From Candidatus Nanoarchaeia archaeon (lineage in GTDB: Archaea; Nanobdellota; Nanobdellia; Woesearchaeales; UBA525), in the NCBI GenBank assembly GCA_028279755.1, contig JANQNB010000010.1, forward strand, positions 92,963-156,962: DNA of 64,000 bases, in the 5' to 3' direction. Under the pieces are notes generated by a model. That model ran no database searches and was not told the origin of the DNA. It worked only from the letters and a program-made list of their open reading frames with translations. Position numbers and translations under genes: made by a program. Positions 813 to 42,137 of this stretch are shown here, in pieces (within the stretch, counting starts at the first letter, position 1; each line of letters begins with the position of its first letter).

Positions 813-984
813 CAGCGGCACCCTCGGCCTTTTAAAGCGCTCTCGTCAGAACCATGTGTCCAAGAAAAAGTATAGGGTATTACGAATCTCAACGCCACCC
901 CCCAAAAATGGCGAAAGCTCGGCAGCTTATAAAGATTCCTGTGCGAGAAGCTCTATATCCTGCCGCTAGCCGGTTTGTGGATAC

Positions 985-2148: not shown

Positions 2149-2306
2149 GCTTTCACCCGTGACTCTTTTTTGCTTTACCTGTTAAAAAACTTGTCAAAAG
2201 AGTCGTACTCTTCCAGCTCGAGCATGACGAATTCGTACCAGTCCGTTGTTTCCATTTTCCTCTCCAAAAAATGTTGGGAAAAAGGTTTAGGGGTTTTCGG
2301 GGGAGT

Positions 2307-5108
2307 TCAGCCGAATATGTTCCTGATCCAGCTCGCGATGCGCTGGAGCAGGTTGGTGTTCTCTGCGATGTCCAGGTCGAGGCTCTTACAGACTGCGTTG
2401 TAGCATTGGTTGCTGACGCACTCGTAGTCGTTCTGGCATGCGCTGCCGTCCCGTTGCTGGTTCACGAACTCGCCGAAGATGCTGCAATAGGTCGCAACTC
2501 CATTCGCCAGCCGGGTTCCGTATGGGAGGCATCTGCCGTTTGATGCGCAGCCGTCCATGCATTCGGTGGTCGGCTCCTCGTCGTCAGGAGGTGGCATGTC
2601 ATTGTCGTAGCACACGCAGTTCTCGTAGCCCTGGCCGTAGCAGACGAGCTGTCCGTCACACTCAGGGGTTTGCTCCTCGTCGTAGTAGCAGTCGCAATGG
2701 CCCTGGCTGTCGCAATACAGAGTGCCGCCATCCTCGCATTCAGGCTCTGGAACAGCCGGGCAGGGGTAGAATGCGCAGTTGTTGTTCGGATCGCGTCCGA
2801 CAGAGCTGCCGTCAGGGCAGAGCTTTGCGTCGCTGGTGCAATAGGTCGGGTTTGGTGTGGTCCGGTGGCCAGTGATCCAGAACACGACAACGCGGTTGTC
2901 GATGTCCTTGACTGACAAGGCACCGCGGAAGTTGCCGCTGGTGAACCTGCTCGTGCCGCCTTCAGCCACTTGCACTCGTTGCCCGTTCACGCTGAACACG
3001 ACCTGATTGGGAGAAGGCAAGCACTTGCCTGCGCCGGTGCCTGGCTCGCAGTTCGCGACAAAGCCGTAGAACACGCCGTCCACGCACACCTTGAGCTCGT
3101 AGTCGTACAGCTCATAGGTCTCGCATTCGCCTTGCTTCAGCTTACCCTCGACGCCTTCATCAGTGGGCTCGTCGAACAGGGTGATCATGTTCTCAACGAG
3201 CAGGTACTTCCTGCTTGTGCCTGGATAGCCCCTTGAGATTGTCTCGAATCCGTCTCCACGGAGGTGGTGCCAGCCGACATTCGCGAGCTGGTGTTCCTCG
3301 CCGGACATCTTCTTGCCCTTGAGCAGCATGGCGTGCTTCTTGTACAGGACGAAGACCAATCCCGCGGTCAGCTCGCTGTCGTCAAGCTGCTCATACGCGT
3401 CGATGTCAAGCATTGCCATGCCGACCGCGATGGGGTTGACGACTTCCTCATCAGCATGGATAATATCCACTTCAGGTCCTGCTTCCTGGAGTGCTCGCGC
3501 AAGATCGATCGCGTCCAGGATGTCGCTGGTGGGCGCCTGGTGGCCGACAACGATGGTGACATCAGGTTCGTCATTCGGCACGATGTCTGGACACGCTTTT
3601 GGCCAGAGCTCGAAATGCGCAACGCCGACCTGCTCGTCAGCGCTCGGGCTGATGCCGTGGTCGATGCGTGTCACCTTGATGGTGCCGCACCGCAATTCCT
3701 GCTTCTCGCCGACGTGCAATGCGCGGGAGACTTGGCCTTCGAGCATGAACTTCGCGCTTGGCCTGTTATCAAGGCTTGGCGCGTCCTCTGCTGCGCCAGC
3801 ATACTTGTCTTCCCAGTACAGCGGGTTGCTCACCCAGGTGAGAGTGAGCTCGTAGTTGCGGTTGTTGTGCCAGTAGTTCTCAGTGTCGCCTTCTCTGAGG
3901 CTGTCTTCGATTGGCGCAGGCGTGCTGGTCGCGCTGAATTTGCCGATGACTGCCCAGCCAGTGACGTAGTCAGTGTCCAGGAGGTGGAATTTCATACCTT
4001 CTGCTTGACCGTACTGGCCGACACGTACAGTGACTTCCTGGCCCTCGTACTCGCTCGCCCAGACGCTGAACGTGGCGTGGTTCTGCTCTGCGTCTTCGAG
4101 CATGATCTGGTAGCGCTTCCCGTCCAAGTACACAGCGTGCACATCGCCTTCATAGAGTTTGACATAGCCGTGAGGCACAGTGCTGCAGCTGCGTGGCCAG
4201 AAGGTGAATTCTGCCTGTCCCTGGTCGCCGCTCGCTGTCACGCTGTTGCCGATGCTCTCGACCTTGATCGTGCCGCACTCTGTGCTGTCTCGCTCGCCAG
4301 GATGGAGCGCTGCTGTCAGCTCGTCGTTGATCACGAACTTCGCGCTCGGCTGGTTGTCGAGTGGTTGTGCATCAGCAGCCTGTCCGCTTTCATGTTCTTC
4401 ACCGTCTTCCCAGTAGAGGGCGTTGCTCACCCATGCGAGGGTGATCTCGTATTCTTCGCCGCCCCAGTGGTAGGTCTTGGTCTCGCCCTCGCGGAGCGTG
4501 TCCCGGAACGCGTCGTCCATTGGTGGCTCGTCATCGTCCAGCAAGGCTTCGATCTTCTCCTCGAAGGTGCTGTACGGGTGTGCGCCGCTGACAAGCTCGC
4601 CGTTGATGAAGAATGCCGGTGTTCCTCGTACGCCGCGGCCTTCGCCTTCTTCGATGTCATCCTCGACGTCTTCGGCAGTGGAATCCTTGTCCAGGCAATG
4701 GGCCATGCTGCTCTCGTCCATGCCGACCCAGCCAGCCCAGCGGAGATAGTAGTCATAGTCGAGCTGATCCTGGTTATTGTAGACATATTCGATGTATTCG
4801 TACATCACGTCCTTGTCTGCTGCGCATTCGATGGCTTTGGAAGCGTCGAACGCGTTCTGGTGGAAGCTCAGCGGGAAGTGTCGATAGACGATCTTCACGT
4901 CGCCGTCTTCTACGTAGTTCTCATAGATCTCTGGGAATGTGTCGCGGTACCATCTGCCGCAGAACGGGCATTCGGGATCGCTGTACCATTCGATCGTGAC
5001 CGGCGCGTCTTCGTCGCCGAGTGTCTTGTATTTCTCCTGGTATGCGAGCGCTGCTGGCGCGACCATGAGCGCCACTGCGATGAGTGCTATCCATTGTGTC
5101 CATTTCAT
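2307..5108 (-). CDS. Large secreted protein: signal peptide + DsbA/thioredoxin-like domain (CPFC) + two internal ~90-aa repeats + CPDGS cysteine repeat + shared C-terminal module
   Basis: MKWTQWIALIAVALMVAPAALA is a signal peptide. 'WYSDPECPFCGRWY…RHFPLSFHQNAFDA…GTPAFFINGELV' is a DsbA-family thioredoxin fold with a CxxC. Duplicated block (…LREGETKTYHWGGEEYEITLAWVSNALYWEDG…QPLDNQPSAKFVIN…ECGTIKVESIG vs …LREGDTENYWHNNRNYELTLTWVSNPLYWEDK…PSLDNRPSAKFMLE…RCGTIKVTRID). The C-terminus …SDAKLCPDGSSVGRDPNNNCAFYPCP…CQNDYECVSNQCYNAVCKSLDLDIAEN…WIRNIFG matches the 985..2148 product. Confidence 0.65.
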   Translation of the reverse strand: MKWTQWIALIAVALMVAPAALAYQEKYKTLGDEDAPVTIEWYSDPECPFCGRWYRDTFPEIYENYVEDGDVKIVYRHFPLSFHQNAFDASKAIECAADKDVMYEYIEYVYNNQDQLDYDYYLRWAGWVGMDESSMAHCLDKDSTAEDVEDDIEEGEGRGVRGTPAFFINGELVSGAHPYSTFEEKIEALLDDDEPPMDDAFRDTLREGETKTYHWGGEEYEITLAWVSNALYWEDGEEHESGQAADAQPLDNQPSAKFVINDELTAALHPGERDSTECGTIKVESIGNSVTASGDQGQAEFTFWPRSCSTVPHGYVKLYEGDVHAVYLDGKRYQIMLEDAEQNHATFSVWASEYEGQEVTVRVGQYGQAEGMKFHLLDTDYVTGWAVIGKFSATSTPAPIEDSLREGDTENYWHNNRNYELTLTWVSNPLYWEDKYAGAAEDAPSLDNRPSAKFMLEGQVSRALHVGEKQELRCGTIKVTRIDHGISPSADEQVGVAHFELWPKACPDIVPNDEPDVTIVVGHQAPTSDILDAIDLARALQEAGPEVDIIHADEEVVNPIAVGMAMLDIDAYEQLDDSELTAGLVFVLYKKHAMLLKGKKMSGEEHQLANVGWHHLRGDGFETISRGYPGTSRKYLLVENMITLFDEPTDEGVEGKLKQGECETYELYDYELKVCVDGVFYGFVANCEPGTGAGKCLPSPNQVVFSVNGQRVQVAEGGTSRFTSGNFRGALSVKDIDNRVVVFWITGHRTTPNPTYCTSDAKLCPDGSSVGRDPNNNCAFYPCPAVPEPECEDGGTLYCDSQGHCDCYYDEEQTPECDGQLVCYGQGYENCVCYDNDMPPPDDEEPTTECMDGCASNGRCLPYGTRLANGVATYCSIFGEFVNQQRDGSACQNDYECVSNQCYNAVCKSLDLDIAENTNLLQRIASWIRNIFG

Positions 5109-5267
5109 GCTTTCAACCTCGTATCCGTTGTACTGCTGATCTGTGCTGTACAGGGTGTTGGTGACCGCGTACTTAAACTCTCGCCGGTCACAGAGGTAGA
5201 AAAAAGGATAAAATAGTCCCCAAATAATAAAAATAGATAAAAATAATACCCAAAAGAAAGAAGAAGC

Positions 5268-6157
5268 TTATTTCTTTATCAATTCGACGCTTTTCTTCCC
5301 GTTATCGTCGATTTTCAGCAATAATCCGCGTTGCTCCAATCCTTCGAGCGTGCGCAACAGGCTGGTGCGTGGAATCCGGGTGGCGCTCTTGAGCGAGGCG
5401 ATCGTCGCCTTGCCGTCCTGGACGATGAGCTGGTCAGCGATCATGCGCTCTTTCGGCCGGAGCGCGTCGAGGTGGTGCTCAATGGCAAAGCGCTTCTTCG
5501 CCGGCTTCGGGACCTCATCGCCTGGCAGGTCGCTCCGCTTTGTCGTGAAATAGGCCGCTACAGCGAGCACCATGAGCAGCGCGAACACGTAGAAGCTCCA
5601 GTGCAGGCTTTCTTCCGGCGCTGGCGGTGCGCTCACGCTCTGGTTGATGGTCATCGTCGTCTGCAGCACCACGCCTTGTTCGATCACGATGTCGAGGCTG
5701 CCTGCCTTGCCCTGCGCTGCGCTGGTGATCACGCAGCTCTCAGCCGGCAGGAAGGTGCGGAAACGGCCGGTGCCGTCGGTCTCGACAGCGACCTGGCGCG
5801 AGGGGCAGTCGACGACCAAGGGCGTGTGGATGATGAGGTTGTCAGTCGCGTCCCGGAGCTCTCCGAGGAGCAGGCCTGCTGGATGCAAGATCAGCGCGGG
5901 CGGCACCTCGCCAGGAGGAATACGGGCGTAGTACTCGTACGTCTCGGACGCGTTCTCCCGGACGAGCACGAGGAGTTCGTGCGCAGTCTGGTTCGGTAGC
6001 ACTGCCGGTTGTCCAGGCTCGATAAGGTATTCAGTCGCAGTCGCACCCTCAATCCTGACGAAACCGGCAGTGATCTCGCTGCCAGTCTGCGCGTCGATCA
6101 AGACAGTGGCTTCAGCCAGTGGTGCTAAGAGTATGACAAACAGCAATGCGTAGCGCA
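5268..6157 (-). CDS. Membrane-anchored putative transcriptional regulator (signal/TM – extracytoplasmic domain – TM helix – cytoplasmic winged-helix)
   Basis: I start the gene at the internal Met (MRYALLFVILLAPLAEA…) because the longer track ORF (to 6575) runs through the ferritin gene. TM helix WSFYVFALLMVLAVAAYF, then …RMIADQLIVQDGKATIASLKSATRIPRTSLLRTLEGLEQRGLLLKIDDNGKKSVELIKK, a TrmB/MarR-like wHTH. Confidence 0.55.
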
Positions 6158-6202
6158 TTACAATCAAAGAAAGAAGTCGGAATAAAAAAGTTTCGTAGAA
6201 TG

Positions 6203-6706
6203 CTACTCCTTTCCACGCTTTCCGAGCTTGTGGTCGAACATCAGCAAGGAGCCGGCGCTGCCCTTGACCATCTTGAGCTTCTGCACGATCTCGTCCACGC
6301 TCGCCTCTTCCTCGACCTGCTCGTCGATAAACCACTGGAGCAGGCTTTGGCTCGCGTAGTCCTTGGCTTTGACTGCCATGTCCATGAGCTTGTTGATCCT
6401 GCCGGAGATGTACTGTTCGTGCTTGTAGCTGGCTTGGAACGCCGCTAAGGGGCTTTGCCAGCTCTTCGGCGGCGCCTTGATCGCAGTAAGCGTTGGCGTG
6501 CCGCCGCGCTCGACGATGTGTTCGAAGAACTTCATCGCGTGCTCGGTCTCCTCCTGCGCCTGTGCCCGCATCCATTGCGCAAATCCTGGGAAGTTCGCGC
6601 TCTCGAGCCAGGCAGCCATGCCGAGGTAGAGATAGGCTGATTCGAACTCTGCGTTGATCTGGTCATTCATCGCTTTTTCCATTGAAGTACTGAGTGCCAT
6701 GAGCAT
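6203..6706 (-). CDS. Ferritin (ferritin-like di-iron protein)
   Basis: …MNDQINAEFESAYLYLGMAAWLES…FAQWMRAQAQEETEHAMKFFEHIVERGG…ISGRINKLMDMA…LLQWFIDEQVEEE carries the ferritin ferroxidase-centre motifs (E…ExxH…E…QxxEE). The ATG is 3 nt inside the GTG-initiated track ORF. Confidence 0.8.
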   Translation of the reverse strand: MLMALSTSMEKAMNDQINAEFESAYLYLGMAAWLESANFPGFAQWMRAQAQEETEHAMKFFEHIVERGGTPTLTAIKAPPKSWQSPLAAFQASYKHEQYISGRINKLMDMAVKAKDYASQSLLQWFIDEQVEEEASVDEIVQKLKMVKGSAGSLLMFDHKLGKRGKE

Positions 6707-6882
6707 CACCTCTGTTGTACGGAAGGGTGTTGTATTTAAGAATATTTAGTTGAAGTGCGGAAATCGTCGGAGAATCTTCACGCGCGCGGACGCTCTCCGG
6801 ATTCCTGCCTGGCAAGCGAATCTGATCCGATCACGTGCAAGAATCTTCCGTTTTTCCCGTCGAAAGCGAGTTATAAGCTGGA

Positions 6883-8070
6883 ATGCATACGACAGGCATG
6901 GCAACGATCCTCCTGAACGGCATACCCGGCATGCGGAAAGGCGAGCTCGTGCGGCGAGTACAGGCAAACGCAACCCTGTTCGGCGTCGATCGCACGATCC
7001 ATTCGATCTCCCTCGGCGACATCGTCGGCAAGCGGGCGCAGCAGCTTTTCGGAACCCGTCCGGAAGACGTTTGCCGTGCAGACTATTCATATCAGCAAGC
7101 CCTTCGGCGCCTGGCGCAAAGAGAAGCCCTCGAACAATTGGCACGCCTGCCAAGCGATGATCACGTCCTCTTTGATCTGCCGTTCACGCTCTCGACAGAG
7201 CATGGCTCTGTCCCTGACCTTGTCTTCCACCAGGCAGAGATCCAGGAATGGCACGACGCGCGATCGATCGATCATGTCATCTCGCTGCTGGACATTCCTG
7301 AACGTGTCGCTGACCGCCTTGTCGGCACGATCTATCCGAATGATGCGACGAGCAATGCGGATGTCAACAAGATCCTCGATTGGATGGTGTACGACGGGCT
7401 CATGGCCCGCTCCTTGGCACCGTATGATCACACGACATACAATAGCGCGGTTCCAACGCTCGCGATCCCGCGCGACGAAGCAGAGATCACCTTGCTCAAG
7501 ATACTGCACGAAGACGAGCGCGGACAACGCATGCACCAGGATTATCCTGTTGTTTATCTCGCCGGTCCGATCTCGAAGCTGAAAGAGGACCAGAAGGACA
7601 GGCCAAAGGTTCGTGATGAGAAAGCCATGCTTCGCGCCCGTCTTGATCGTTTCCAGGCGAAGATGCAACGCTACGCCATCACGATCGTGCCGATGAAGAT
7701 CGCGGATGCGCGAGCCCACGACGCGACCCAGATCGCGAACACAGTCTATCGCGACAAGCACTTCTTCGTGACTGGCGCAACCTTCACGGTCGCGTACTAT
7801 CCGAGCGCGAACAAGAGCTATCAGAGCGCGGGAACCATGGAGGAGTTGCGCCACGGCCTCCGCCTGGGCAAGCCGGCTGTGCTGATCCATCCAGGCATCA
7901 AGGACGGCGTGACTGCAGACGGTGAGGTCTTCGGCGTCAGGCCGCGCTTATGCTTCCGTAACCAGACACGGTTCTTCGACGCGCTGGAAGAGCACGGGCT
8001 CTTGCAGTCAATGAAGTCAGAAGGGGCTCCGCGCTATGATTGCATGCGCGACGCGATGAGGGTTATATGA
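6883..8070 (+). CDS. Hypothetical protein. N-terminal P-loop-like segment; C-terminal half has a nucleoside 2-deoxyribosyltransferase-like 'VVYLAGPI' Rossmann motif.
   Basis: Long ORF with typical codon usage. 'ILLNGIPGMRKGELV' is a degenerate P-loop; 'YPVVYLAGPISKLKED' resembles the NDT/LOG-fold motif. The function call is an inference only. Confidence 0.5.
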   Translation: MHTTGMATILLNGIPGMRKGELVRRVQANATLFGVDRTIHSISLGDIVGKRAQQLFGTRPEDVCRADYSYQQALRRLAQREALEQLARLPSDDHVLFDLPFTLSTEHGSVPDLVFHQAEIQEWHDARSIDHVISLLDIPERVADRLVGTIYPNDATSNADVNKILDWMVYDGLMARSLAPYDHTTYNSAVPTLAIPRDEAEITLLKILHEDERGQRMHQDYPVVYLAGPISKLKEDQKDRPKVRDEKAMLRARLDRFQAKMQRYAITIVPMKIADARAHDATQIANTVYRDKHFFVTGATFTVAYYPSANKSYQSAGTMEELRHGLRLGKPAVLIHPGIKDGVTADGEVFGVRPRLCFRNQTRFFDALEEHGLLQSMKSEGAPRYDCMRDAMRVI

Positions 8071-9121
8071 TCTTCGAGATGATCCCTTTGTCAGCGTCAA
8101 CCGCGACCTTGTCGCCAGTCTTGAAGTTCCTGGTGGCGTTGAATGCCTGGATGATGCACGGCACGCCGAGCTCGCGCGAGACGACTGCGGCGTGGCTCAA
8201 GAACCCGCCTTGCTCAGCGACGATGGCGCTCGCTTTCTTGCAGAGCAGAATAATGTCAGGGCTGGTGGATTCTGCGATGAGGATGTCGCCTTCGTGCATG
8301 GTCTTGTTGGCTGCAGCGATAGCCTCCTCGTTGTTCAGCATCGGGACCACGACAGCACGGCCCTTCGCCACGCCCGGGTTCGCCGGCACACCCGTGATCT
8401 TGGATGCTGGCTCGTATTTCGTGAAGTCGTCGAACAGCTGCTGCGCTTCCGCTGAGGAGAAGTGGGTTATCTTCCCGTCGATGACTGTGGCTGCATAGCA
8501 TTCCTTGCGTTCCAGAATCAGCTGTTCTGGTGGTAGTTCGCCGCTGAAAAGCGCGAGCAGCTCTTCTCGGTAGAGGTAGCGCGCCCAGTCTTCCTTGAGA
8601 AAGGTCTTTGACAGGTATGCGAGGAGATTGTCGATCACCCCGTCCTTGAAGAAATACGCGTTCATGATTTCGCGCGCAGTGAACTTGAACGTGCTCATGC
8701 GCTCCAAGCGCTCCTTTATTCCCTCGTCTGCTACGCTATAGGCTTCATCAAGGTATGGGAACTCGGCAAAGCCGTAGTAGTACCAAAGCCTGCCGAGAAA
8801 TTCGGAGACAGAGGAGAATTCCTCGAGGGTCATTGTCTCAGGAACCGTGTTGTAGTGCGCGATGACCTCTTTGGCTTCTTCGACATAGTCTTGGAATTCC
8901 TGAAAGAGCGCTTCGAAGCGTTGGGGAGTTCCGTACAGCGCTATCCCTGCCTTGCCAAGCGCTGGCAATTGTTCGCTCTGAAAGAATATGTGATAGTCCT
9001 GGCCCTTGCTCACGAGCAGCAAGTGTGCCTTGGCGAGGCTGCTGTGCAGCAGGAAGTCGTTGTGCAGACAGCTCACTTGTGCTGCAATGCTGAAGAACTT
9101 GGTGTAGTCCGCAGGATCCAT
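8063..9121 (-). CDS. PEP-utilizer 'swivel' phospho-His domain protein, paralog 0 (unknown N-terminal helical domain + C-terminal PEP-utilizers mobile domain)
   Basis: C-terminus …GDILIAESTSPDIILLCKKASAIVAEQGGFLSHAAVVSRELGVPCIIQ matches the His-domain of PpsA/PPDK (E. coli PpsA: GDVLVT.MTDPDW…[29 protein letters not shown]). There is no ATP-grasp domain and no PEP-binding domain. The start overlaps the PCNA stop (ATGA). Confidence 0.7.
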   Translation of the reverse strand: MDPADYTKFFSIAAQVSCLHNDFLLHSSLAKAHLLLVSKGQDYHIFFQSEQLPALGKAGIALYGTPQRFEALFQEFQDYVEEAKEVIAHYNTVPETMTLEEFSSVSEFLGRLWYYYGFAEFPYLDEAYSVADEGIKERLERMSTFKFTAREIMNAYFFKDGVIDNLLAYLSKTFLKEDWARYLYREELLALFSGELPPEQLILERKECYAATVIDGKITHFSSAEAQQLFDDFTKYEPASKITGVPANPGVAKGRAVVVPMLNNEEAIAAANKTMHEGDILIAESTSPDIILLCKKASAIVAEQGGFLSHAAVVSRELGVPCIIQAFNATRNFKTGDKVAVDADKGIISKII

Positions 9122-9858
9122 CAGTCGTTGTCGACTCGTGGCGCCAGGATGAACATGAGCTGCATCTTGTCCTTGACCGTGTAGTCGAGCTTGAGCGGGT
9201 AGTCCTTGCTGAACTGGAGCGAGGCCGTATCTGCGAGCTTGGCACCTTGGATCATCTTCTTGAGATACTCGATCGAGTACTTGCTCTTGGTCTCTTCCTT
9301 GGCCTCGATAGAGGTGCTCTCGTCCGGCAGGATCTCGACTTCCGCCTTGCTCAGGTCAGAAGAGCTGCTGATCCGGAAAGCCTTGCTGTCAGCCATGAAC
9401 GCGACGCTCTCGCCAATGATGTCCACGTCTTCGACCGCGTCGTTGATCACAGCCGCGTCGGTCGAGACTTTTGCTGCGAACTCCAGCGAGGGCACTTTCT
9501 GCTCCTTCTCCTCGACGTCGATGAGCGGCAGCAGGAATTCTCGCTTGCTCTTGCCTTTCAGCGTGACTTTCAGCTTCGCCTCGGGATTCTCGAGCGTGAT
9601 CGTATCGCTCGGCTTCACTCTGCGCAGGACCTGCTTGAGATCGTTGAGATTGATCGCCAAGGTGCGCTCGGTCTTTGCGTCGTATTCGACGAAGCAGCTG
9701 CTCAGGAGCTTGTACACGACCATCGCGACATTCGCCGGGTCCATGGCGATGAGCTCCATGCCGTTCTTGGTCACCTGGAACCGTACTTCTGTGACAAGGT
9801 CTGCGATGATGCTGACGCTCTCCTTGAGAAATTTCGTATCTGCAAGCGTGAGTTTCAT
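9121..9858 (-). CDS. pcn: DNA polymerase sliding clamp PCNA
   Basis: 245 aa. MKLTLADTKFLKESVSIIADLVTEVRF…MELIAMDPANVAMVVYKL…KVSTDAAVINDAVE… has the archaeal PCNA fold signature and length. Confidence 0.85.
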   Translation of the reverse strand: MKLTLADTKFLKESVSIIADLVTEVRFQVTKNGMELIAMDPANVAMVVYKLLSSCFVEYDAKTERTLAINLNDLKQVLRRVKPSDTITLENPEAKLKVTLKGKSKREFLLPLIDVEEKEQKVPSLEFAAKVSTDAAVINDAVEDVDIIGESVAFMADSKAFRISSSSDLSKAEVEILPDESTSIEAKEETKSKYSIEYLKKMIQGAKLADTASLQFSKDYPLKLDYTVKDKMQLMFILAPRVDND

Positions 9859-9946
9859 TATTTCCCCCTCAGTTACCCTTAGAAGAGCGGAGCGCGCGAC
9901 GCTATTTAAAGGTTTTTACAGAATATAAAGCCACAAACGCGTCATC

Positions 9947-10333
9947 TCACTGGAAGAGCTGATCTAGTTCGTCTACGAGGTCACCTTTCTCTATCATGGT
10001 TTTGGGATTCAGGTTGTATTCCTGCGCGACTGCATTGTCGTTCTCAGAGATGTGATTGGACATGAGGATGATCCGCTCTTTGCCAACACCCTGCTCTATC
10101 AGGAATTTCCGCATCTCAGGACCGGCGCGGTAGCTTGGTCCATCTACCCGATCCAAATAGCCGCACATGTCAAGCAAATACAGATCGTACACGTCGCCCA
10201 TTTGCATGAAGAGGTCCTTGCCGGCGGCGACATCCGAGACGCCCGCGACGCTGGTATCAGTCCACCTCATCAACTCGCCAATAATGAAGATCCAATCAGG
10301 ATCATCATCTAGGACAAAAACGTCGATACTCAT
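9947..10333 (-). CDS. Stand-alone CheY-like response-regulator receiver domain protein
   Basis: Started at the internal Met MSIDVFVLDDDPD…, whose ATG overlaps the stop of 10330..11736 (ATGA). Receiver hallmarks present: DD pair (LDDD), phospho-acceptor Asp in 'LYLLDMCGY', S/T in 'ILMSNH', Lys in 'NLNPKT'. No output domain. Confidence 0.6.
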   Translation of the reverse strand: MSIDVFVLDDDPDWIFIIGELMRWTDTSVAGVSDVAAGKDLFMQMGDVYDLYLLDMCGYLDRVDGPSYRAGPEMRKFLIEQGVGKERIILMSNHISENDNAVAQEYNLNPKTMIEKGDLVDELDQLFQ

Positions 10334-11736
10334 ACGATCGCCACCGTACCGTTTTCCGCATCCACGCGGATCCTGTCGCCGTCCTTGATCAGCGTTGTCG
10401 CGTGTCTCGTGCCGATCACACACGGTTTCTTCAGCTCGCGCGCGACGATTGCTGCGTGGCAGGTGATCCCGCCTTCGTCAGTCACGAATGCTGCAGCGCG
10501 TTCCATGGCTGGCAGGTAATCAGGCGTGGTCATTGCGGTCACGAGAATCTCGCCTTTCTGCAAGCGCGCGTTCTCTTTCGGCTCCTGTATCAAGCGGGCG
10601 ACACCTTCAACTGTGCCTGGGAACGCGGTCTGGCCCTTGATCGCCTTGCCTTGCTGGACTTCTTCTCGCAAGGGCTTTGCCGGTGCGTAGATTTGGCGCT
10701 TTTGGATCGTGTTTGTGCCGCCAAAGCTCTGCTTGCGAGCTTCCTTCTTCTGCTCAAGAAGCGCGAGGTCTTGTTTATGGATCGTACAAAGCTCGTCGAA
10801 TGTCAGCCAGTGTATCTCCTGTGCTGGCCAGCCGATCTTCTTGCCGATGAGTTCCAACAATGGCAGGAGCTTGTACGCTGCGAGGTTGATGTTGTCCTTG
10901 ATGAACGTCGGGAAGAAGATCCATTCGCGATATTCCTTGATCAGCTGCTGCTCGTCCTCAGATAATGAGAGTTTTGCGATTGCTGCATTGATTTTTTCTT
11001 CAGTTTTTCTTGACCCTTCTTTGAATTCCTGCAGTTCTTTTTTCGGGTTTTGTATTCCTTTAGCTCTTTTTTTCAGTTCAGCCTGTGTCAACGGCGATCC
11101 CCTGAACCAGTGATAGTTGAGCCAATCAAAATCCCTGATGAACTGTGCATATCCTTCCTCGCTTGGCGCTATTGCGAGTCGCAGCAAGGCTTCTTTCTGC
11201 GCTGTCACGACGGTTTTCTTCAATGGCTCTTGGAACAAGCGCATTGTCGCGTCGAATTCTTCAAGGCGCTCTTGTTCTGCGAGACGTGTGGCGACGATCG
11301 CGCGCACTTGTTCGCCGAGCACTGCGCTCATCTGGACAGAGCCGCGATAGCTGATATAGCCGGTCATCCAGAGGAAGGCTTCGATTTCTTGCTTGAACAA
11401 TGCTGCGAGCTCCTTGAGCGTCTTGTCCTTATGCTGTGCTGGATCGAATGCATACCCCTCAATTGCTTTCACGCGCGCGTAGACTTTCGCAGCCATCTTT
11501 TTTGCATATGTTGTATCTTTCAGCATCAGACGCAGCTCGTCTTCGATCATCCTGATCTCTTCTGCGTCAAAGTAGATGTCGCCGTTCTCATACCTCGTTG
11601 CAGTCAGCCCTTGCGGGATCTCGAACTCCAGAGCACTACGACGCACGCTCTCGTTGTAGATCGACACTGAGAGCACGCTGTTTGTCTTGTTCATGGTCCA
11701 GTGCCATTGGAGCTCGTTTCCTAACGCATTCATCAT
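10330..11736 (-). CDS. PEP-utilizer 'swivel' phospho-His domain protein, paralog 1
   Basis: C-terminus …GEILVTAMTTPDYLPAMERAAAFVTDEGGITCHAAIVARELKKPCVIGTRHATTLIKDGDRIRVDAENGTVAIV. The ~330-aa N-terminus is helical with a W/Y-rich block (…NYHWFRGSPLT…) shared with the paralogs. Confidence 0.75.
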   Translation of the reverse strand: MMNALGNELQWHWTMNKTNSVLSVSIYNESVRRSALEFEIPQGLTATRYENGDIYFDAEEIRMIEDELRLMLKDTTYAKKMAAKVYARVKAIEGYAFDPAQHKDKTLKELAALFKQEIEAFLWMTGYISYRGSVQMSAVLGEQVRAIVATRLAEQERLEEFDATMRLFQEPLKKTVVTAQKEALLRLAIAPSEEGYAQFIRDFDWLNYHWFRGSPLTQAELKKRAKGIQNPKKELQEFKEGSRKTEEKINAAIAKLSLSEDEQQLIKEYREWIFFPTFIKDNINLAAYKLLPLLELIGKKIGWPAQEIHWLTFDELCTIHKQDLALLEQKKEARKQSFGGTNTIQKRQIYAPAKPLREEVQQGKAIKGQTAFPGTVEGVARLIQEPKENARLQKGEILVTAMTTPDYLPAMERAAAFVTDEGGITCHAAIVARELKKPCVIGTRHATTLIKDGDRIRVDAENGTVAIV

Positions 11737-11791
11737 GAAGAAGGAGTGGCATCCGAAACATTTATGTATTCGCTCTCCATTTTTAGAGAGT

Positions 11792-12535
11792 ATGGAGCCT
11801 TCTTTCCTCGAGGAACTCGGCCTGACGCCTGGCGAAGCAAGGATCTACCTCGCATTGCTCGAGCTTGGCGAGAGCAAGGTCGGCAAGGTGATCGAGAAGA
11901 CCGGCATGGCGAGCAGCGCTGTGCACAACGCGCTGAACACAATCGCGGAGAAAGGCCTTGTCACCCATATCCTGCGCGGCAAGATCAAGAATTACCGTGC
12001 AGTCCCGCCGAAACAGCTCCTCGACTATATCGACGACAAGCGGCGGCGCGTCAAGCAGCAGCTGCCTGCATTGCAGAGCCTGCACGCTGCCGCTGATCAG
12101 AAGACTGAAGCTGAGGTATATGAAGGCACGAAAGGCCTCATCACCATGCTCCACGACCTGATCAGCGAGATGACCAAGAAGGACACCTATCGCTTCTTCG
12201 CGCTCGAGCAGGCTGGTCGCAATGAAGAGATCCAGCGCTTCTTCCGGCGCTATGATGTGCTCCGCGCAGAGCGGTGCAAGGCAGTGAAGGGCATCGCGCC
12301 GAGAAAGATCAAGCGCGTTTTCGAAAAGCGGCCACACCTCACAATGCGCTATACAGAGGAAGCCTTGCCGAACAACATGATCATCTGCCGCGACAAGATG
12401 GCCTTCATCAACTGGGATGACAAGCCCAGCGGCGTGCTGATCAGGTCAGCGCAGCTCGCTGCGAAGTACACGCGCTTCTTCGACGCGATGTGGACTAGGC
12501 GATCTTCACGCGCTCGCCGTTCTTCACGATCCTGA
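11792..12535 (+). CDS. TrmB-family transcriptional regulator, divergently transcribed from the PEP-utilizer gene at 11736
   Basis: Started at MEPSFLEELGLTPGEARIYLALLELGESKVGKVIEKTGMASSAVHNALNTIAEKGLV…, the TrmB N-terminal wHTH. The upstream part of the track ORF (from 11687) is a likely over-extension. The 55-bp divergent intergenic region has AT-rich TATA-like sequence. Confidence 0.7.
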   Translation: MEPSFLEELGLTPGEARIYLALLELGESKVGKVIEKTGMASSAVHNALNTIAEKGLVTHILRGKIKNYRAVPPKQLLDYIDDKRRRVKQQLPALQSLHAAADQKTEAEVYEGTKGLITMLHDLISEMTKKDTYRFFALEQAGRNEEIQRFFRRYDVLRAERCKAVKGIAPRKIKRVFEKRPHLTMRYTEEALPNNMIICRDKMAFINWDDKPSGVLIRSAQLAAKYTRFFDAMWTRRSSRARRSSRS

Positions 12536-13922
12536 TCTGGTTGGGCTTGTAGCCGACCTCTTTCGCGAGTTCCTTGAACGCCACGAGTTGTTTCATCTCG
12601 CCGTGCGTCGGGATGATGTTCTTCGGCTTGAGCATGTTCAGGAAGTCGCGGCCGTCCTCGCGCGCGCCGTGCCCGCTGACGTGGATATTGTCGAAGATGC
12701 GCACGTGACGCGATTGCAGCTTCGCGTCCAATCGCTTCCTGTTCTCCAGGCTCACCGGCACCGGAATCGTCTTTGAGGAGAACACGACCATGTCGTTGTC
12801 AGTCAAGCGCAGCAGGTTCTCGTTCACGATGCGTGACAAGACCGCTTTCGGCTCGCCCTGGTGCCCGGTCGCGACGAAGAGGAATTTGCCCGGATCGGTG
12901 ATCTTCTTCAGGTAGCTCTTCACCTTGCTGCCGTAGCGCACCTTCTCCACATCTGAGAAGTCTGCGAGGTCGACTGCTTCGGCTGCGTCGGTGTACTTCG
13001 AGAGCGAGCGTCCCAAGAACACTGTCTGTCGTTTCATCATCTTCGCCACGTTCACGATCGCGCGCAAGCGTGCGATATGGCTCGAAAATGTCGAGACGAT
13101 GATCGTCGCGTCACGCGATTGCGTCCCCAGAAGCACGTCTTTCAGCATCTCCTCAGCGATCTTTTCAGAAGGCGTCTTGATTGGCTGGTCTGCGTACAAG
13201 GTGTCGAGGATCAAATAGTCCACTTGCCCTTCGAGCTCGCGCAGGCGTGCATAGTTCGGCTTTGGTCCTAAGGTGGGATTGTTGTCGAACTTGAAGTCGT
13301 TCGCGTACAGCACCTTACCATAGGGTGTGTGCACCAAGGCCATCACGGTGTGCGGTGCGCTGTGCGTGATGTAGATGAACTCGATCTCGAATTTCGTTCC
13401 GACGCGGAAGCGGTCGTTCACGTCGTGCTCGACCAGCGTGCCCCGTGGCATGCGCTTCTCGTCGTCGTACATGCGGTCGACGAGCTCGATCGTGAATGGC
13501 GCTGCGTGGATGTCGCAGTCGAACTTGTTCGCGATGTATGGCACTGAGCCGATGTGGTCCAGGTGCGCGTGCGTGAGCACGATGCCGACCACATTCTTCT
13601 TCAGCTTTCCCAGGATGTCGACGTTCGGCGCCGCCCCGATCTCGATCAGTTTCCTTCCTGAGATCTCAACGAACTCGTCAGTGTCGGTGTATTCGATGTA
13701 CTTGTCCATCATGAGCCCGAGATCGAGCACCACGACTTCGTCGTCTGCGCGGATCGCGACGCTGTTGCGGCCGATCTCTGAGAAGCCTCCTAATGGGATG
13801 ATCTCCATCTTGGCCTTGCTGTTCTCGATCGCTTTTGTTGTCAGTTCTTTGATCCGTTTCTTGAACGGACGTCTTTTAGTCTTCTTTCTATGTGGTTTCT
13901 GTCTATTTCTTTGTCTATTCAT
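12495..13922 (-). CDS. rnj: Ribonuclease J (archaeal beta-CASP metallo-beta-lactamase RNase) with an unusual ~38-aa Lys/Arg-rich N-terminal extension
   Basis: …MEIIPLGGFSEIGRNSVAIRADDEVVVLDLG…VLTHAHLDHIGSVPY…YITHSAPH…ATGHQGEP…HVSGHGARED… carries MBL motifs 1-4 and the beta-CASP A/B/C motifs. N-terminal MNRQRNRQKPHRKKTKRRPFKKRIKELTTKAIENSKAK precedes the canonical MEIIPLGG start. Confidence 0.8.
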   Translation of the reverse strand: MNRQRNRQKPHRKKTKRRPFKKRIKELTTKAIENSKAKMEIIPLGGFSEIGRNSVAIRADDEVVVLDLGLMMDKYIEYTDTDEFVEISGRKLIEIGAAPNVDILGKLKKNVVGIVLTHAHLDHIGSVPYIANKFDCDIHAAPFTIELVDRMYDDEKRMPRGTLVEHDVNDRFRVGTKFEIEFIYITHSAPHTVMALVHTPYGKVLYANDFKFDNNPTLGPKPNYARLRELEGQVDYLILDTLYADQPIKTPSEKIAEEMLKDVLLGTQSRDATIIVSTFSSHIARLRAIVNVAKMMKRQTVFLGRSLSKYTDAAEAVDLADFSDVEKVRYGSKVKSYLKKITDPGKFLFVATGHQGEPKAVLSRIVNENLLRLTDNDMVVFSSKTIPVPVSLENRKRLDAKLQSRHVRIFDNIHVSGHGAREDGRDFLNMLKPKNIIPTHGEMKQLVAFKELAKEVGYKPNQIRIVKNGERVKIA

Positions 13923-14100
13923 TTTCTAACTCCGAGAGAATCCGAATGGTTTAGGTGCTTCAAAAGCCGCCCAGGCCTCCCGGGCTTTACCCCTATGGGT
14001 TCTCTCTCACAGCGATGCTGTGTATTGCGCTGGAAAAACTGCCAGTCCTTTATAAACCTATGCTTTTTATCGCTTGGAACCTATGTTTTGAAGAATAATT

Positions 14101-14110
14101 TTCTATATAG
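14101..14110. promoter_or_regulatory. Perfect palindrome TCTATATAGA embedded in an extended AT-rich near-palindrome (GAATAATTTTCTATATAGAAATTTATTTC); candidate TATA/operator element between PEP-utilizer paralog 2 and rnj
   Basis: Seen directly. The same 10-mer, in a ~25-bp similar context, recurs at 45955..45964. Confidence 0.35.
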
Positions 14111-14114
14111 AAAT

Positions 14115-15359
14115 TTATTTCAGCTTACGCACAATGCCCTTCTCAGCGTCGACTTCGATCATCTCGCCGTCTTTGAAGGCCCGTGTCGCTAGCTCTGTAC
14201 CGATAATGCAAGGCTTCTGCATCTCCCGTGCAACGATCGCAGCGTGACAGAGAATGCCTCCCTCGTCAGTCACGAACGCAGCAGCGCGATGCATAGCCCC
14301 GATCAGCTCCGGTGTGGTATTGCCTGTGACGAGGATTTCGCCTTCTCGCAACGCGTTCGCATCAGCCTGCGATAACACGATCCTGGCCTTTCCCTGCACC
14401 TTGCCGGCAAAAGCAGGCTCTCCACGCACTTCATCAACAGCCACTGGATCATATTCGGTAAGCTGTTCGTCAGCGATCAACTGCTCCACAGCATCCTTGC
14501 CTTCACAGGTGGAATAGGTATCATCACGCAAGAGGATTCCGTAGTGCTCGCTACGAATCTTATTCTGCGGAAGCCCGCCGCCATCAAGCCACGCGAAGAA
14601 TTCGTCCTCGAAGCAATTCATCACTGCTTCCTCATCCAGGTTCATCGCTTCCAAGGTCTTGCGCATCGCCCAGCTCGCGCGCACCACAGCGGCCTTTCCC
14701 TGATCAAGCACGTACAATGATTTCTGTGCGCACTGCACAAGCCACGAATCCTCTTTGCCATCTTCTTCATGCACGTGTTTCTTGACACTTTGCAGAGCTG
14801 CCGTGTACTCTTCGATACCCCATTCCTGTGCCATATATTCGGAGTGCAACCAGCCAAAACGGGAAGCCAAGGATGCGACATCATCTTTGTCCGCATCAAT
14901 GATTGCCTGGTGTTCCTGTTGCACCATGGTTGACTTGAACGGACGAGCCAAACGAAGATTAATATCGCTTGGACACCCAGGTTCTTGTTTGACCAAAGCA
15001 ACAAAATCCTTACCAATCCAATGGCCCATTGCCATGACTGCCATGACCCGACCAAATGTTTCGTAACAGACACGAATATGTTCTTTGTCCTTTCCTGGTT
15101 TGAGCTTGAGCACTTCTTCGATGAATTTCATGTGGTGATCGAAAAACGCGTCAACATCTTCTTGAGAAGAGGTTGTGATATTTGACACAGTATTTCTCTC
15201 AGGATAGAACATAATGCTCGCGCTCTGGTTCTTCACCACAAGCCCGTGCTTGATTTGCCAGAAGACAGGGTCATGCTTGTTTCCCTTGCGGGATTCGATA
15301 AGAAACTTATGCCATTGCAGCGGATAGATATTCCGTTGCACCACCTTAATCCATTTCAC
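14115..15359 (-). CDS. PEP-utilizer 'swivel' phospho-His domain protein, paralog 2
   Basis: C-terminus …GEILVTGNTTPELIGAMHRAAAFVTDEGGILCHAAIVAREMQKPCIIGTELATRAFKDGEMIEVDAEKGIVRKLK. The 5' end overlaps the stop of paralog 3 by 4 nt. Confidence 0.75.
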   Translation of the reverse strand: MKWIKVVQRNIYPLQWHKFLIESRKGNKHDPVFWQIKHGLVVKNQSASIMFYPERNTVSNITTSSQEDVDAFFDHHMKFIEEVLKLKPGKDKEHIRVCYETFGRVMAVMAMGHWIGKDFVALVKQEPGCPSDINLRLARPFKSTMVQQEHQAIIDADKDDVASLASRFGWLHSEYMAQEWGIEEYTAALQSVKKHVHEEDGKEDSWLVQCAQKSLYVLDQGKAAVVRASWAMRKTLEAMNLDEEAVMNCFEDEFFAWLDGGGLPQNKIRSEHYGILLRDDTYSTCEGKDAVEQLIADEQLTEYDPVAVDEVRGEPAFAGKVQGKARIVLSQADANALREGEILVTGNTTPELIGAMHRAAAFVTDEGGILCHAAIVAREMQKPCIIGTELATRAFKDGEMIEVDAEKGIVRKLK

Positions 15360-16654
15360 AGCTTCTTCACCACTCCCTTACTTGCATCGAGTAGGAGTGT
15401 ATCGCCATTCTTGAAGATTCCGGTCGCATCTTTCGTGCCGATCACGCACGGTTTGCGCATCTCGCGGGAAACAATCGCTGCGTGGCAGGTGATTCCGCCT
15501 TCGTCTGTGACGAACGCAGCTGCCTTGTGCATCGCCGGCATCATGTCAGGGGTTGTCATGCTTGTCACGAGGATCTCGCCGTCCTGGACCTGTGCCAAGT
15601 CCTTGTGCGAAAAGATGAGCCGTGCTGTACCGCGGATCGTGCCAGGGTAGGTGCCCCGTCCCTCAACCTTGTTGCCCGTGGCGCTGCTCTTGAACAAGAC
15701 TTTAATCTCCTTGTTCTCTTTCCCGGTGAGGATGGTCATCTGGTGCTCTTCGCCGATGAACGCGAATTCCTCCTGGCGTTCCTTGAGGTCTTTCGGCGGG
15801 GTTTCGAGCTCGTCCACCATGCAATGCAAGAGCTCGTCATAGGTCAGGTCTTTCTCTTTCGCGATCACTTTGAGCTTGTCTGCGTACTCATAAGCGACGC
15901 GGTTCATCACGTCGGTGCGTTGCGTCCGGTAATAGATGAAGAACTGCATCAGGTCGACAAGGAAGGCCTTGTCGCCCATCACGCTTTTCGCTTTCGCGAT
16001 CGCAGCGGTGATCGCCGCTTTTTCCTTCTCCTGCGTTTCGAGATAGTTCGAGGCTTTGAGATCCTTCAGCAGGATCTCTGCATCGTTCTCAGTGAGTTCG
16101 ACGATGCGGCCGTAGCGTGAGTGGAGAAACGGAAATTGCTCCATGAATGCTTGCTTGTCCTTGAGAATGAGCTGGTTCGCGAGCTTGTGATAGTTATCAA
16201 GAAGCGGCGTTGACAGCAATGTCATGAGCTCTGCAATCGTTTCCTCATCGAAATGCGGGCTGAGCAGGCTTTTCACCTTATTCTCGATCTGGCTGTCGCA
16301 GATGAAATAGACGCCTAAGCAGGGGATATACTCCCGATATGCCTGGCAGAAGGTCTGCAGATCCTCCTTCACCGCTGCGAGCAACGCGGCTTCTTTCTTG
16401 AGCGTGACTTTTTTCAGCATCTGCCAGAACTCTTCGTTCTTGAACAGCCTGACCTTCAGCTTCTTGGGAAATTCTTGCATGTAATAGCGCGTGTAGTACC
16501 AGACCCGGTCGATATTGATCAGATCGTTCACGACTTCATCGATGTCGAACGCTTGCCAGATTTCCCTGCTCTGATACGCTTGGAAGATGAGCGAGATATA
16601 GAACGGCGGATACGGGCGCCTGACCGTCTTCTGGAACTTCGCAGGATCAACCAA
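15356..16654 (-). CDS. PEP-utilizer 'swivel' phospho-His domain protein, paralog 3
   Basis: C-terminus …GEILVTSMTTPDMMPAMHKAAAFVTDEGGITCHAAIVSREMRKPCVIGTKDATGIFKNGDTLLLDASKGVVKKL. The 5' end overlaps paralog 4 by 8 nt. Confidence 0.75.
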   Translation of the reverse strand: MVDPAKFQKTVRRPYPPFYISLIFQAYQSREIWQAFDIDEVVNDLINIDRVWYYTRYYMQEFPKKLKVRLFKNEEFWQMLKKVTLKKEAALLAAVKEDLQTFCQAYREYIPCLGVYFICDSQIENKVKSLLSPHFDEETIAELMTLLSTPLLDNYHKLANQLILKDKQAFMEQFPFLHSRYGRIVELTENDAEILLKDLKASNYLETQEKEKAAITAAIAKAKSVMGDKAFLVDLMQFFIYYRTQRTDVMNRVAYEYADKLKVIAKEKDLTYDELLHCMVDELETPPKDLKERQEEFAFIGEEHQMTILTGKENKEIKVLFKSSATGNKVEGRGTYPGTIRGTARLIFSHKDLAQVQDGEILVTSMTTPDMMPAMHKAAAFVTDEGGITCHAAIVSREMRKPCVIGTKDATGIFKNGDTLLLDASKGVVKKL

Positions 16655-20092: not shown

Positions 20093-20194
20093 TGAGGGGA
20101 CTGGGATTCGAACCCAGGTAGGCACTAAGCCGACGGCTTGCACATCAATAACCGACTTTGAGGCCGTTCCGTTTGACCGCTCCGGCATCCCCTC
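20093..20194 (-). tRNA. tRNA, type II (long variable arm), predicted anticodon CAA (Leu), with a predicted ~18-nt intron 3' of position 37; CCA not encoded
   Basis: Minus-strand read: GAGGGGA-UG-CCG(GAGCGGUCAAA)CGG-A-ACGGC-CUCAAA[GUCGGUUAUUGAUGUGCA]A-GCCGU-(15-nt variable)-CUGGG-UUCGAAU-CCCAG-UCCCCUC-A. The 7-bp acceptor stem is perfect (GAGGGGA/UCCCCUC), the T-loop UUCGAAU is canonical, the D-stem has 3 bp with GG in the loop, and the discriminator is A73. The anticodon stem ACGGC/GCCGU only forms if 18 nt are removed; the intron contains UUG, complementary to the anticodon CAA as expected for a bulge-helix-bulge. Confidence 0.6.
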
Positions 20195-24178: not shown

Positions 24179-24182
24179 GCCG

Positions 24183-25568: not shown

Positions 25569-25569
25569 C

Positions 25570-42073: not shown

Positions 42074-42137
42074 TACTGAATAGTAGATATTCGACACTAT
42101 AATAAATATTTCATTCGAAAATACGACAAATGAGGAA

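Follow-up and report, generated by a model that had tools for sequence, protein, structure and literature searches.

A divergent stand-alone receiver coupled to a swivel-domain gene in an accessory cassette beside the PCNA gene of a Nanoarchaeia archaeon

The 64-kb stretch of DNA from a DPANN-like archaeon that was analysed as a whole, and that we refer to as the window, contains a small gene for a CheY-like receiver located among genes encoding the sliding clamp PCNA, a transcription regulator and several proteins with a phospho-His swivel domain. The region is organized as follows:

8063..9121, minus strand: swivel paralog 0, 352 residues (PF00391, E 5e-23)
9121..9858, minus strand: PCNA sliding clamp, 245 residues (PF00705, PF02747, TIGR00590)
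9859..9946, minus strand: spacer between receiver and PCNA, 88 bp (sequence and sister-genome comparison)
9947..10333, minus strand: receiver (REC) gene, 128 residues (open reading frame call)
10330..11736, minus strand: swivel paralog 1, 468 residues, without ATP-grasp domain (PF00391, E 1.9e-27)
11737..11791, no strand assigned: intergenic region separating the divergent paralog 1 and TrmB genes, 55 bp (sequence reading)
11792..12535, plus strand: TrmB-family transcription regulator (PF01978, E 9e-13)
12495..13922, minus strand: RNase J (beta-CASP), a backbone gene (Pfam)
14115-15359, 15356-16654, 16647-18068 and 18065-19471, minus strand: four further tandem swivel paralogs (PF00391, E 1e-24 to 1e-27)

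The receiver and PCNA genes, both on the minus strand, have the coordinates given in the original prediction, and the two overlaps that it had described are confirmed: the ATG of the receiver and the stop codon of paralog 1 form an ATGA at 10333-10330, and the TGA of PCNA and the ATG of paralog 0 have base 9121 in common (TGATG). The receiver ATG is preceded, at a distance of 7 nt, by a GGTGG, and a longer version of the protein starting from a GTG at 10423 was dismissed, as its homologues and the public gene calls all begin at the ATG. The TrmB gene is divergent from paralog 1 and shows a convergent overlap with the 3' end of RNase J. In the window, 10 of the 33 pairs of same-strand neighbours overlap at a coding density of about 94%, and the sharing of start and stop codons is therefore nothing special in this genome. 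With respect to non-coding genes, one tRNA was identified in the window by Rfam and none by ARAGORN.

When used as a single sequence, the receiver did not retrieve any relevant match from the PDB in a phmmer search and recovered only itself in a word-indexed search. Its comparison with PF00072 aligns the acceptor aspartate as anticipated, but the score of 18.3 bits (E=0.0027) stays below the gathering score of 30.2. An exhaustive search with the receiver identified only nine relatives, and of 1.8 billion representative proteins only about 11 belong to the family. No related loci were found in JGI metagenomes with a tight receiver alignment. At E <= 0.1, PF00072 matches six of 10 family members with a best value of 4.4e-6. 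A profile built from the 10-11 relatives matches response regulators only, which are also its top hits in the PDB (E 1e-4), with Asp 55 placed on the acceptor aspartate, and a comparison of the family with canonical REC domains in hhalign yields a probability of 97.6% (E 2.9e-12). The AlphaFold model obtained from the alignment of 11 sequences (pLDDT 93.6, pTM 0.88), which supersedes a single-sequence prediction with a pLDDT of 43, displays a (beta-alpha)5 fold with alternating strands and helices, where beta5 is shorter than the length cut of DSSP. In a Foldseek search of the PDB with this model, the best 50 matches were all receivers, led by CheY (1u8t_A) with a TM score of 0.72. As judged from the profiles and the model, the open reading frame encodes a genuine stand-alone single-domain receiver, which, as proposed initially, carries no output domain.

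The predicted phosphorylation site of this protein is reflected in the alignment of the 10-11 family members from which residue conservation was judged. Its acidic pair, Asp 9 and Asp 10, aligns with Asp 12 and Asp 13 of CheY and contains either Asp or Glu at position 9 and Asp at position 10 in all full-length members. Asp 55 in the sequence LLDM is invariant and aligns with the acceptor aspartate of RR468, Spo0F and CheY (Asp 57), and Ser 92 in LMS, which aligns with Thr 87 of CheY, is nearly invariant and replaced by threonine in one member. The conservation in the family thus supports the earlier assignment of the DD pair, of the phospho-acceptor in LYLLDMCGY and of the serine in ILMSNH. 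The lysine, in turn, had been misplaced: Lys 111 in NPKT, the residue selected originally, is not conserved, and the invariant lysine of the family is Lys 116 in MIEKGD, directly following predicted beta5. With all five predicted phosphorylation residues intact, the receiver is apparently phosphorylatable, and its interpretation as pseudo-receiver was dismissed on account of the conservation at each of the five active-site positions.

In its general organization the protein resembles single-domain response regulators such as CheY and Spo0F, with which it shares the fold, a length of about 125 residues, the lack of an output domain and the placement of the acidic pair after beta1, the aspartate after beta3, the Ser/Thr after beta4 and the lysine after beta5. 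Conversely, it is only 13-15% identical to CheY and differs from both proteins by an insertion of eight residues in the beta3-alpha3 loop, by an invariant family-specific VSxND motif (Ser 96, Asp 99) in the beta4-alpha4 region and by the absence of a proline after the conserved lysine. Unlike in CheY and Spo0F systems, the 64 kb of the window contain neither a chemotaxis gene nor one for a histidine kinase or HPt, and searches for HisKA, HATPase_c and HPt among the approximately 59 genes of the window gave no match.

The gene overlapping with the receiver is one of six swivel paralogs, which all contain PF00391 at their C-terminus (E about 1e-23 to 1e-27) and in which the catalytic histidine of the GGxxxH motif is invariant. 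Paralog 0 is the shortest and most divergent of these proteins, with a conserved His 310, and the four tandem paralogs between 14115 and 19471 share about 24% mutual identity. In paralog 1, the C-terminal phospho-His swivel domain is preceded by an uncharacterised body. A profile of the protein aligns to residues 624-866 of the rifampin phosphotransferase chain, which extends beyond the swivel domain. Alignments with NCBIfam PRK06241 models begin at about residue 232, with scores far below every NCBIfam cut-off, while its N-terminal 376 residues alone have no sequence match in the PDB. The succession, in the swivel paralogs, of a body that may correspond to a RIF-binding-like substrate domain and a C-terminal His swivel domain with a GGxxxH motif resembles HpeH, PpsA and CreH, which are components of two-component small-molecule dikinases (PMC12167813), and RPH (PDB 5FBS, 5HV1). 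An HpeH-type component by itself is able to shuttle phosphoryl groups between substrates (PMC12167813). In contrast to the HpeH, PpsA and CreH systems, we did not find a HpeI/PpsB-like ATP-grasp partner in the window, where PF01326 is absent from all of the approximately 59 genes including the paralogs. As candidates for ATP-grasp or kinase partners, a 395-residue open reading frame next to paralog 0 and three open reading frames upstream of paralog 5 were considered and rejected, as none has a match in Pfam or NCBIfam. The swivel genes of the window also differ from HpeH and RPH by their arrangement in tandem arrays, as observed in CPR and DPANN genomes, where such arrays comprise up to 10 diverged units. 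We have identified more than 2393 homologues of paralog 1 in these groups, with a few distant ones carrying PF01326, and found nothing relevant in the literature on swivel or PEP-utilising arrays in CPR/DPANN or on REC-PEP-synthase architectures.

On the other side of the receiver, PCNA is an unremarkable protein. It is a full-length two-domain clamp that passes all cut-offs as expected for an archaeal PCNA (PF00705 56.9 bits, PF02747 49.3 bits, TIGR00590 124.3 bits with a cut-off of 99.1) and that is unusual in its neighbours only, which are not conserved. The 88-bp spacer contains a BRE/TATA-like element, consisting of AAAAACC at 9917-9911 and TTTAAATA at 9910-9903, and a Shine-Dalgarno sequence GAGGGGG at 9870-9864. 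Unlike the remainder of the spacer, both blocks are kept in two sister genomes (L006, L007). TATA-like octamers of the same class as TTTAAATA cluster upstream of gene starts across the window. A scan with sigma-70 and intrinsic-terminator models, which are bacterial and unsuited to an archaeon, remained at background level. The PCNA of the sister genome is 90.6% identical, and RNase J shares 82.7% identity with its L006 counterpart. There, RNase J is located immediately upstream of the PCNA region, in the order RNase J, an 84-residue open reading frame and PCNA, without TrmB, paralog 1, the receiver or paralog 0 and without a swivel gene on either side. PCNA is also found in none of 160 other swivel loci, and its GC3 of 0.82 is within the range that includes RNase J and RuBisCO (0.80-0.82). 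We consider PCNA as a housekeeping gene of the ordinary kind that has a predicted promoter of its own, does not belong to the receiver-swivel unit and merely looks embedded owing to the accessory swivel genes on both sides. Since no oligo-T terminator follows the receiver in the spacer, read-through into PCNA is possible, and the PCNA promoter probably drives transcription of paralog 0 as well. The tight coupling of the three kinds of genes that was emphasized in the original prediction is thus retained for the receiver and its swivel gene, which share the ATGA, but not for PCNA, in light of the spacer promoter, the sister genome and the 160 loci; with a conserved BRE/TATA element between its genes, a predicted internal promoter of the kind that the original prediction had named as a refutation, the region no longer qualifies as a single operon.

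In contrast to PCNA, the receiver and paralog 1 both have a GC3 of 0.64, and they are jointly missing from the sister genome. Their translational coupling, as proposed from the ATGA overlap, is consistent with the sequence. In two other loci (L014, L023), orthologues of TrmB are divergent from orthologues of paralog 1, and about 19 of the 160 loci have a TrmB-like gene in the vicinity of swivel genes. The 55-bp divergent region between both genes holds CATTTATGTA / TACATAAATG and may act as a shared promoter. The combination of TrmB and a swivel gene is a recurrent DPANN/CPR module to which the receiver is a rare add-on, and the receiver is the last gene of an accessory cassette of about 2.6 kb that is flanked by two backbone genes, RNase J and PCNA.

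A second instance of REC and swivel domains in the same locus was detected in two of the 160 swivel loci (L104 and L077), where a REC-like domain is fused N-terminally to a swivel unit. Both domains score below the Pfam cut-off (17 and 26 bits), and the two fusions, being homologous, represent a single evolutionary event. The remaining 158 loci, within about 1.5 Mb of swivel-locus DNA, do not contain any other REC match. In hhalign, the fused domain shows no significant similarity to the receiver family of the window, and it appears to originate from a different REC lineage. As in response regulators combining an N-terminal REC with an enzymatic output, of which L104 and L077 are examples, the locus of the window ties a REC-type domain to a swivel-family enzyme, as would be expected of an enzyme under REC control; it differs in that the two are encoded separately and that the receiver gene follows that of the enzyme. 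The fusions thus keep a regulatory link between REC and swivel proteins plausible.

Based on these properties, we favour, with moderate confidence, a scenario where a genuine but divergent receiver resides in an accessory cassette with TrmB and paralog 1, next to an independent PCNA, and serves as phospho-switch. The receiver would be co-transcribed and co-translated with paralog 1 and would act by protein-protein contact on this HpeH/rifampin-phosphotransferase-like enzyme, or on TrmB, in a manner that parallels the control of enzymatic output domains by an N-terminal REC in fused response regulators. Among these targets, the regulation of the swivel enzyme is the most likely role. The search of the approximately 59 genes of the window for histidine kinases, HPt proteins and ATP-grasp domains did not reveal a phosphodonor for either the receiver or the swivel proteins, and the receiver could be phosphorylated by a kinase encoded outside of the window or by a small molecule. 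The broader proposition that receivers constitute regulatory inputs of CPR/DPANN swivel arrays, in trans as in this locus and fused in L104 and L077, is possible but tentative, and more likely than the phosphotransfer discussed below.

Alternatively, the receiver could be a real response regulator that serves a two-component pathway elsewhere in the genome and that is next to paralog 1 by chance. Such adjacency is possible in a tightly packed region where overlaps are common and where, by our estimate, about one gene position in 5-6 borders a swivel paralog. The comparison with other genomes points in the same direction: the pairing of receiver and swivel gene was not seen to recur, with no swivel gene adjoining a receiver-family member in any of seven other contexts for which flanking DNA or gene calls could be used (of which five are contigs of 1-2.3 kb and one consists of gene calls only) and no member of the receiver family in any of the 160 swivel loci. 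Against coincidence stand the atypical GC3 common to the receiver and paralog 1, their joint absence from the sister genome, and the existence of the REC-like fusions in swivel-locus DNA that otherwise lacks REC, and we regard a chance neighbourhood as possible but less likely.

The target of the phosphorylated receiver could also be TrmB instead of the swivel enzyme, in which case its binding would alter transcription of the cassette. TrmB is the sole neighbour family common to receiver contexts, and the closest homologue of the receiver (P0002) is located directly beside a divergent TrmB gene whose product is 40% identical to the TrmB of the cassette. However, this is the case in only two of seven contexts with DNA, comprising the window and six relatives, the fragment in question (L090) extends over merely 1 kb, its TrmB is also 36% identical to the second TrmB of the window, and regulators of this family are abundant in such genomes. 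An exclusive partnership with TrmB thus appears improbable to us.

We assign a still lower probability to a His-Asp relay, in which the phospho-His of the swivel domain in paralog 1 would donate its phosphoryl group to Asp 55 and thereby replace a histidine kinase or HPt. The translational coupling of both genes, the intact acceptor pocket, the lack of a histidine kinase in the 64-kb window and the ability of HpeH-type components to shuttle phosphoryl groups would be in line with such a mechanism. To our knowledge, though, there is no precedent for a PF00391 domain acting as phosphodonor to a receiver, and no ATP-grasp partner that could load the swivel proteins was identified. The N-terminal location of the REC-like domain in the fusions is the usual place of a regulatory input domain, and the co-occurrence of a receiver with swivel genes as separate proteins is confined to this genome. 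Phosphotransfer from swivel protein to receiver, which had been put forward as speculative, thus finds no comparative support in the seven receiver contexts and 160 swivel loci.

Finally, the notion of a three-way operon, where receiver and swivel proteins would regulate or modify the PCNA clamp, draws on gene order (receiver, 88 bp, PCNA and the 1-bp overlap with paralog 0) and the missing oligo-T terminator, and is largely refuted and hardly credible in view of the conserved predicted promoter of PCNA, the different neighbours of its close homologue in the sister genome, its absence from the 160 swivel loci and its GC3, which is distinct from that of the receiver.

With the failure of this operon, the locus gives no sign of a hidden connection of the replication clamp with two-component signalling. 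It instead points to a very rare and highly divergent receiver family that is invisible to Pfam at threshold and, through a single operon and a single fusion lineage independent of it, offers a first hint at an attachment of REC domains to HpeH/RPH-like swivel arrays. These tandem arrays are widespread and uncharacterised in CPR bacteria and DPANN archaea, and TrmB regulators are among their recurrent partners. If the receiver does regulate the swivel enzyme, it would provide an experimental handle on a large family without known function in these ultra-small symbiotic microbes.

The 128-residue open reading frame predicted to encode a CheY-like receiver lies within an array of swivel-domain genes, whose order is:

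19471 to 14115, minus strand, four swivel paralogs
13922-12495, minus strand, RNase J
11792-12535, plus strand, TrmB regulator
11736-10330, minus strand, swivel paralog 1
10333-9947, minus strand, 128-residue receiver
between receiver and PCNA, minus strand, 88-bp spacer
9858-9121, minus strand, PCNA
9121-8063, minus strand, swivel paralog 0

Both proposed overlaps can be read directly from the sequence, ATGA at 10333-10330 joining the receiver start to the stop of paralog 1 and TGATG at 9123-9119 joining the PCNA stop to the start of paralog 0. Since the coding density of the window is about 94% and 10 of its 33 same-strand neighbour pairs overlap, such an arrangement alone carries little information in this genome. 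A 395-residue frame (6883-8070, plus strand), which has no Pfam or NCBIfam match and is missing from the sister genome, converges on paralog 0 with an overlap of 8 bp.

In an alignment to PF00072, D55 of the receiver coincides with the acceptor aspartate, as had been proposed, although the score of the single sequence (18.3 bits, E=0.0027) stays below the gathering score of 30.2. The same sequence found no match in the PDB and no relatives in a word-indexed search of 5.8 billion proteins, and its AlphaFold model was poor (pLDDT 43). Nine relatives of about 130 residues with 30-40% identity emerged when 1.84 billion representatives were searched exhaustively with HMMER, and a subsequent profile-based search extended the family to eleven members. 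PF00072 matches six of ten members, and the highest-ranking PDB matches to the family profile are response regulators, whose acceptor aspartate aligns with the LLDM segment. In a comparison by hhalign with six canonical receivers, which serves as a supporting test only, the family is related to these proteins with 97.6% probability (E 2.9e-12), pairing D55, S92 and D9/D10 with D57, T87 and D12/D13 of CheY and revealing an 8-residue insertion in the β3-α3 loop. Prediction with the 11-sequence alignment yielded a model with classic alternating β/α order (pLDDT 93.6, pTM 0.88), and a Foldseek search of the PDB with this model returned receivers at each of the first 50 ranks, with CheY first (TM 0.72). 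D55, M56, I88, S96, D99 and K116 are invariant in the family and D10 and S92 nearly so. The lysine originally assigned, K111 in NPKT, occupies a variable column, and the invariant one is K116 following β5. The agreement of profile, hhalign, AlphaFold and Foldseek upholds the assignment as a real stand-alone receiver, which has an intact active site and by sequence criteria appears phosphorylation-competent. The protein, a new and rare addition to the REC superfamily, belongs to a very small and very divergent family.

The grouping of receiver, PCNA and swivel genes into one unit held only in part. In the spacer, AAAAACC-TTTAAATA and GAGGGGG precede the PCNA ATG by 52 and 5 nt, respectively. 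Of the 16 TATA-like octamers of this class in the whole window, 11 or 12 fall in intergenic DNA, which makes up about 6% of the sequence, and nine precede a gene start by 31-134 nt. In two contigs of a sister organism (L006, L007), encoding a PCNA with 90.6% and an RNase J with 82.7% identity to those of the window, conservation upstream of PCNA resides mainly in the BRE/TATA and Shine-Dalgarno blocks, placing a conserved promoter between receiver and PCNA. The order there is RNase J, an unrelated 84-residue frame and PCNA, with an oppositely oriented nucleotidyltransferase gene next, and these contigs are devoid of TrmB, paralog 1, receiver and paralog 0. The GC3 values of PCNA (0.82), RNase J and RuBisCO (both 0.80) are typical of core genes, with receiver and paralog 1 (both 0.64) and paralogs 2 and 4 (0.57-0.58) ranking as accessory. 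None of a further 160 swivel loci (L010-L089 and L092-L171, 80 each from species-representative genomes and metagenomes) contains PCNA. Because of the conserved promoter blocks, sister gene order, GC3 and its absence from these loci, PCNA counts as a backbone gene that is served by a promoter of its own and is thus a bystander, flanked on both sides by accessory genes that were either gained here or lost in the sister organism. The PCNA transcript probably also covers paralog 0 and, as the spacer contains no oligo-T tract, transcripts may read through from the receiver into PCNA. What persists of the proposed unit is the receiver and one swivel gene, paralog 1, to which it would be translationally coupled by the overlapping start and stop.

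The six swivel paralogs share about 24% mutual identity and retain the histidine of the GGxxxH motif. Against PEP synthase their profile aligns in the swivel domain alone, but against rifampin phosphotransferase it spans chain residues 624 to 866, reaching the substrate-binding domain, and the NCBIfam RPH/PRK06241 models align similarly with scores far below cut-offs. This arrangement of a putative substrate domain and a swivel domain resembles that of HpeH, PpsA and CreH, the substrate-plus-swivel components of two-component small-molecule dikinases, in which ATP-grasp resides on a separate partner protein (PMC12167813). The window yielded no ATP-grasp gene (PF01326). Homologues of paralog 1 number more than 2393 and belong mostly to Patescibacteria and DPANN. 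The low GC3 of most paralogs and the receiver (0.57-0.67, well under the 0.80-0.82 of core genes; intermediate at 0.73-0.76 in paralogs 0 and 3 and TrmB) suggests that the array (8063-19471) has another history or is expressed at another level.

The pairing of receiver and swivel protein does not recur in the genomes surveyed. The receiver-family HMM has no match in the 160 swivel loci, and the closest paralog 1 homologues whose neighbourhoods were read (P0013, P0015, L014, L023) have no receiver after them. Conversely, no PF00391 gene lies beside a family member in seven usable contexts (six contigs with DNA, and P0010 with gene calls only), a weak count as five contigs span only 1-2.3 kb. 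Neighbours in these contexts include MazG/UMPH-1, SLH proteins, dCTP deaminase and a HerA-like ATPase; the closest homologue is adjoined by a TrmB-family regulator gene (L090, 3-296). Another homologue, P0005, adjoins a DUF87 gene (L091, 809-2125), and in the window a 1361-residue frame without Pfam match (48368-52453, minus strand) is divergent from a HerA/DUF87-type ATPase (52540-53862, plus strand). About 19 of the 160 loci have a TrmB-like gene close to a swivel gene, in a divergent upstream position in 12 cases, and L014 (4952-5755) and L023 (4586-5377) contain clear orthologues of the window TrmB (E 1e-62 to 1e-64), divergent from paralog 1 orthologues. These occurrences point to TrmB plus one or more swivel genes as the recurrent module, to which the receiver would be an add-on so far seen in the window genome only.

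Receiver, paralog 1 and TrmB are all present in the window and missing from the sister genome. The receiver would most likely act in trans as a phospho-switch on either of the other two. The 64-kb window contains no kinase gene as phosphodonor. Within about 1.5 Mb of swivel-locus DNA, a canonical-REC HMM has exactly two further matches, both inside swivel genes. In a 632-residue protein (L104, 5320-7218), a REC-like domain at the N-terminus (PF00072 E 0.006, 17 bits) is joined to a C-terminal PF00391 domain, and in L077 a REC-like segment (about 9172-9810; E 1.4e-5, 25.7 bits) stands ahead of unit 7 in a 4201-residue frame, both scores being sub-threshold. Together the segments align by hhalign to canonical receivers with 91.6% probability, with the ED pair and acceptor aspartate in place, and they are related to the window family at the superfamily level only. 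Because they are homologous to each other, they would count as one independent event, in which REC sits where a domain providing regulatory input to a swivel enzyme would be expected. This topology favours regulation over relay. Direct His-to-Asp transfer from a swivel domain to the receiver, for which we know of no precedent and which finds no comparative support, is accordingly very improbable. The fusions keep a link between REC and swivel domains alive, and the association of the receiver with swivel enzymes is a lead and not a finding.

Elsewhere, the window contains an operon-like run that constitutes the archaeal AMP salvage pathway, its first gene preceded at 36 nt by a TTTAAATA box:

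21831-26874, minus strand, β-CASP nuclease, form III RuBisCO, AMP phosphorylase and ribose-1,5-bisphosphate (R15P) isomerase-type e2B2 protein

A probably intron-containing tRNA of 102 nt (20093-20194, minus strand) was detected with Rfam (45.7 bits), and ARAGORN reported no tRNA in the window. Together with PCNA, TrmB and the archaeal RNase J, this tRNA and the AMP salvage genes suggest that the window derives from a DPANN-like archaeon. This apparently small archaeal genome also encodes a cyclodipeptide synthase (41348-42097, minus strand; PF16715, E 7e-17).

Two or more swivel units lie within about 13 kb in 87 of the 160 loci, with up to ten in some, counts in which stop-to-stop frames may split certain genes. 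Tandem arrays are thus the rule for swivel genes in CPR bacteria and DPANN archaea. The arrayed units (as in L029, L047, L064 and L065) are highly diverged and consist of an uncharacterised body and a C-terminal PF00391 domain without ATP-grasp. In L077, from a Woesearchaeota MAG, eight units occupy the single stop-free frame of 4201 residues (883-13485) in AT-rich DNA without masked (N) bases, and L030 (4145-12286), L021 (2-5347) and L073 (2563-6333) show similar continuous frames, which could encode giant multi-unit proteins or reflect unusual decoding or processing. The swivel arrays of CPR and DPANN organisms, including these giant frames, present more intriguing biology than the receiver itself.
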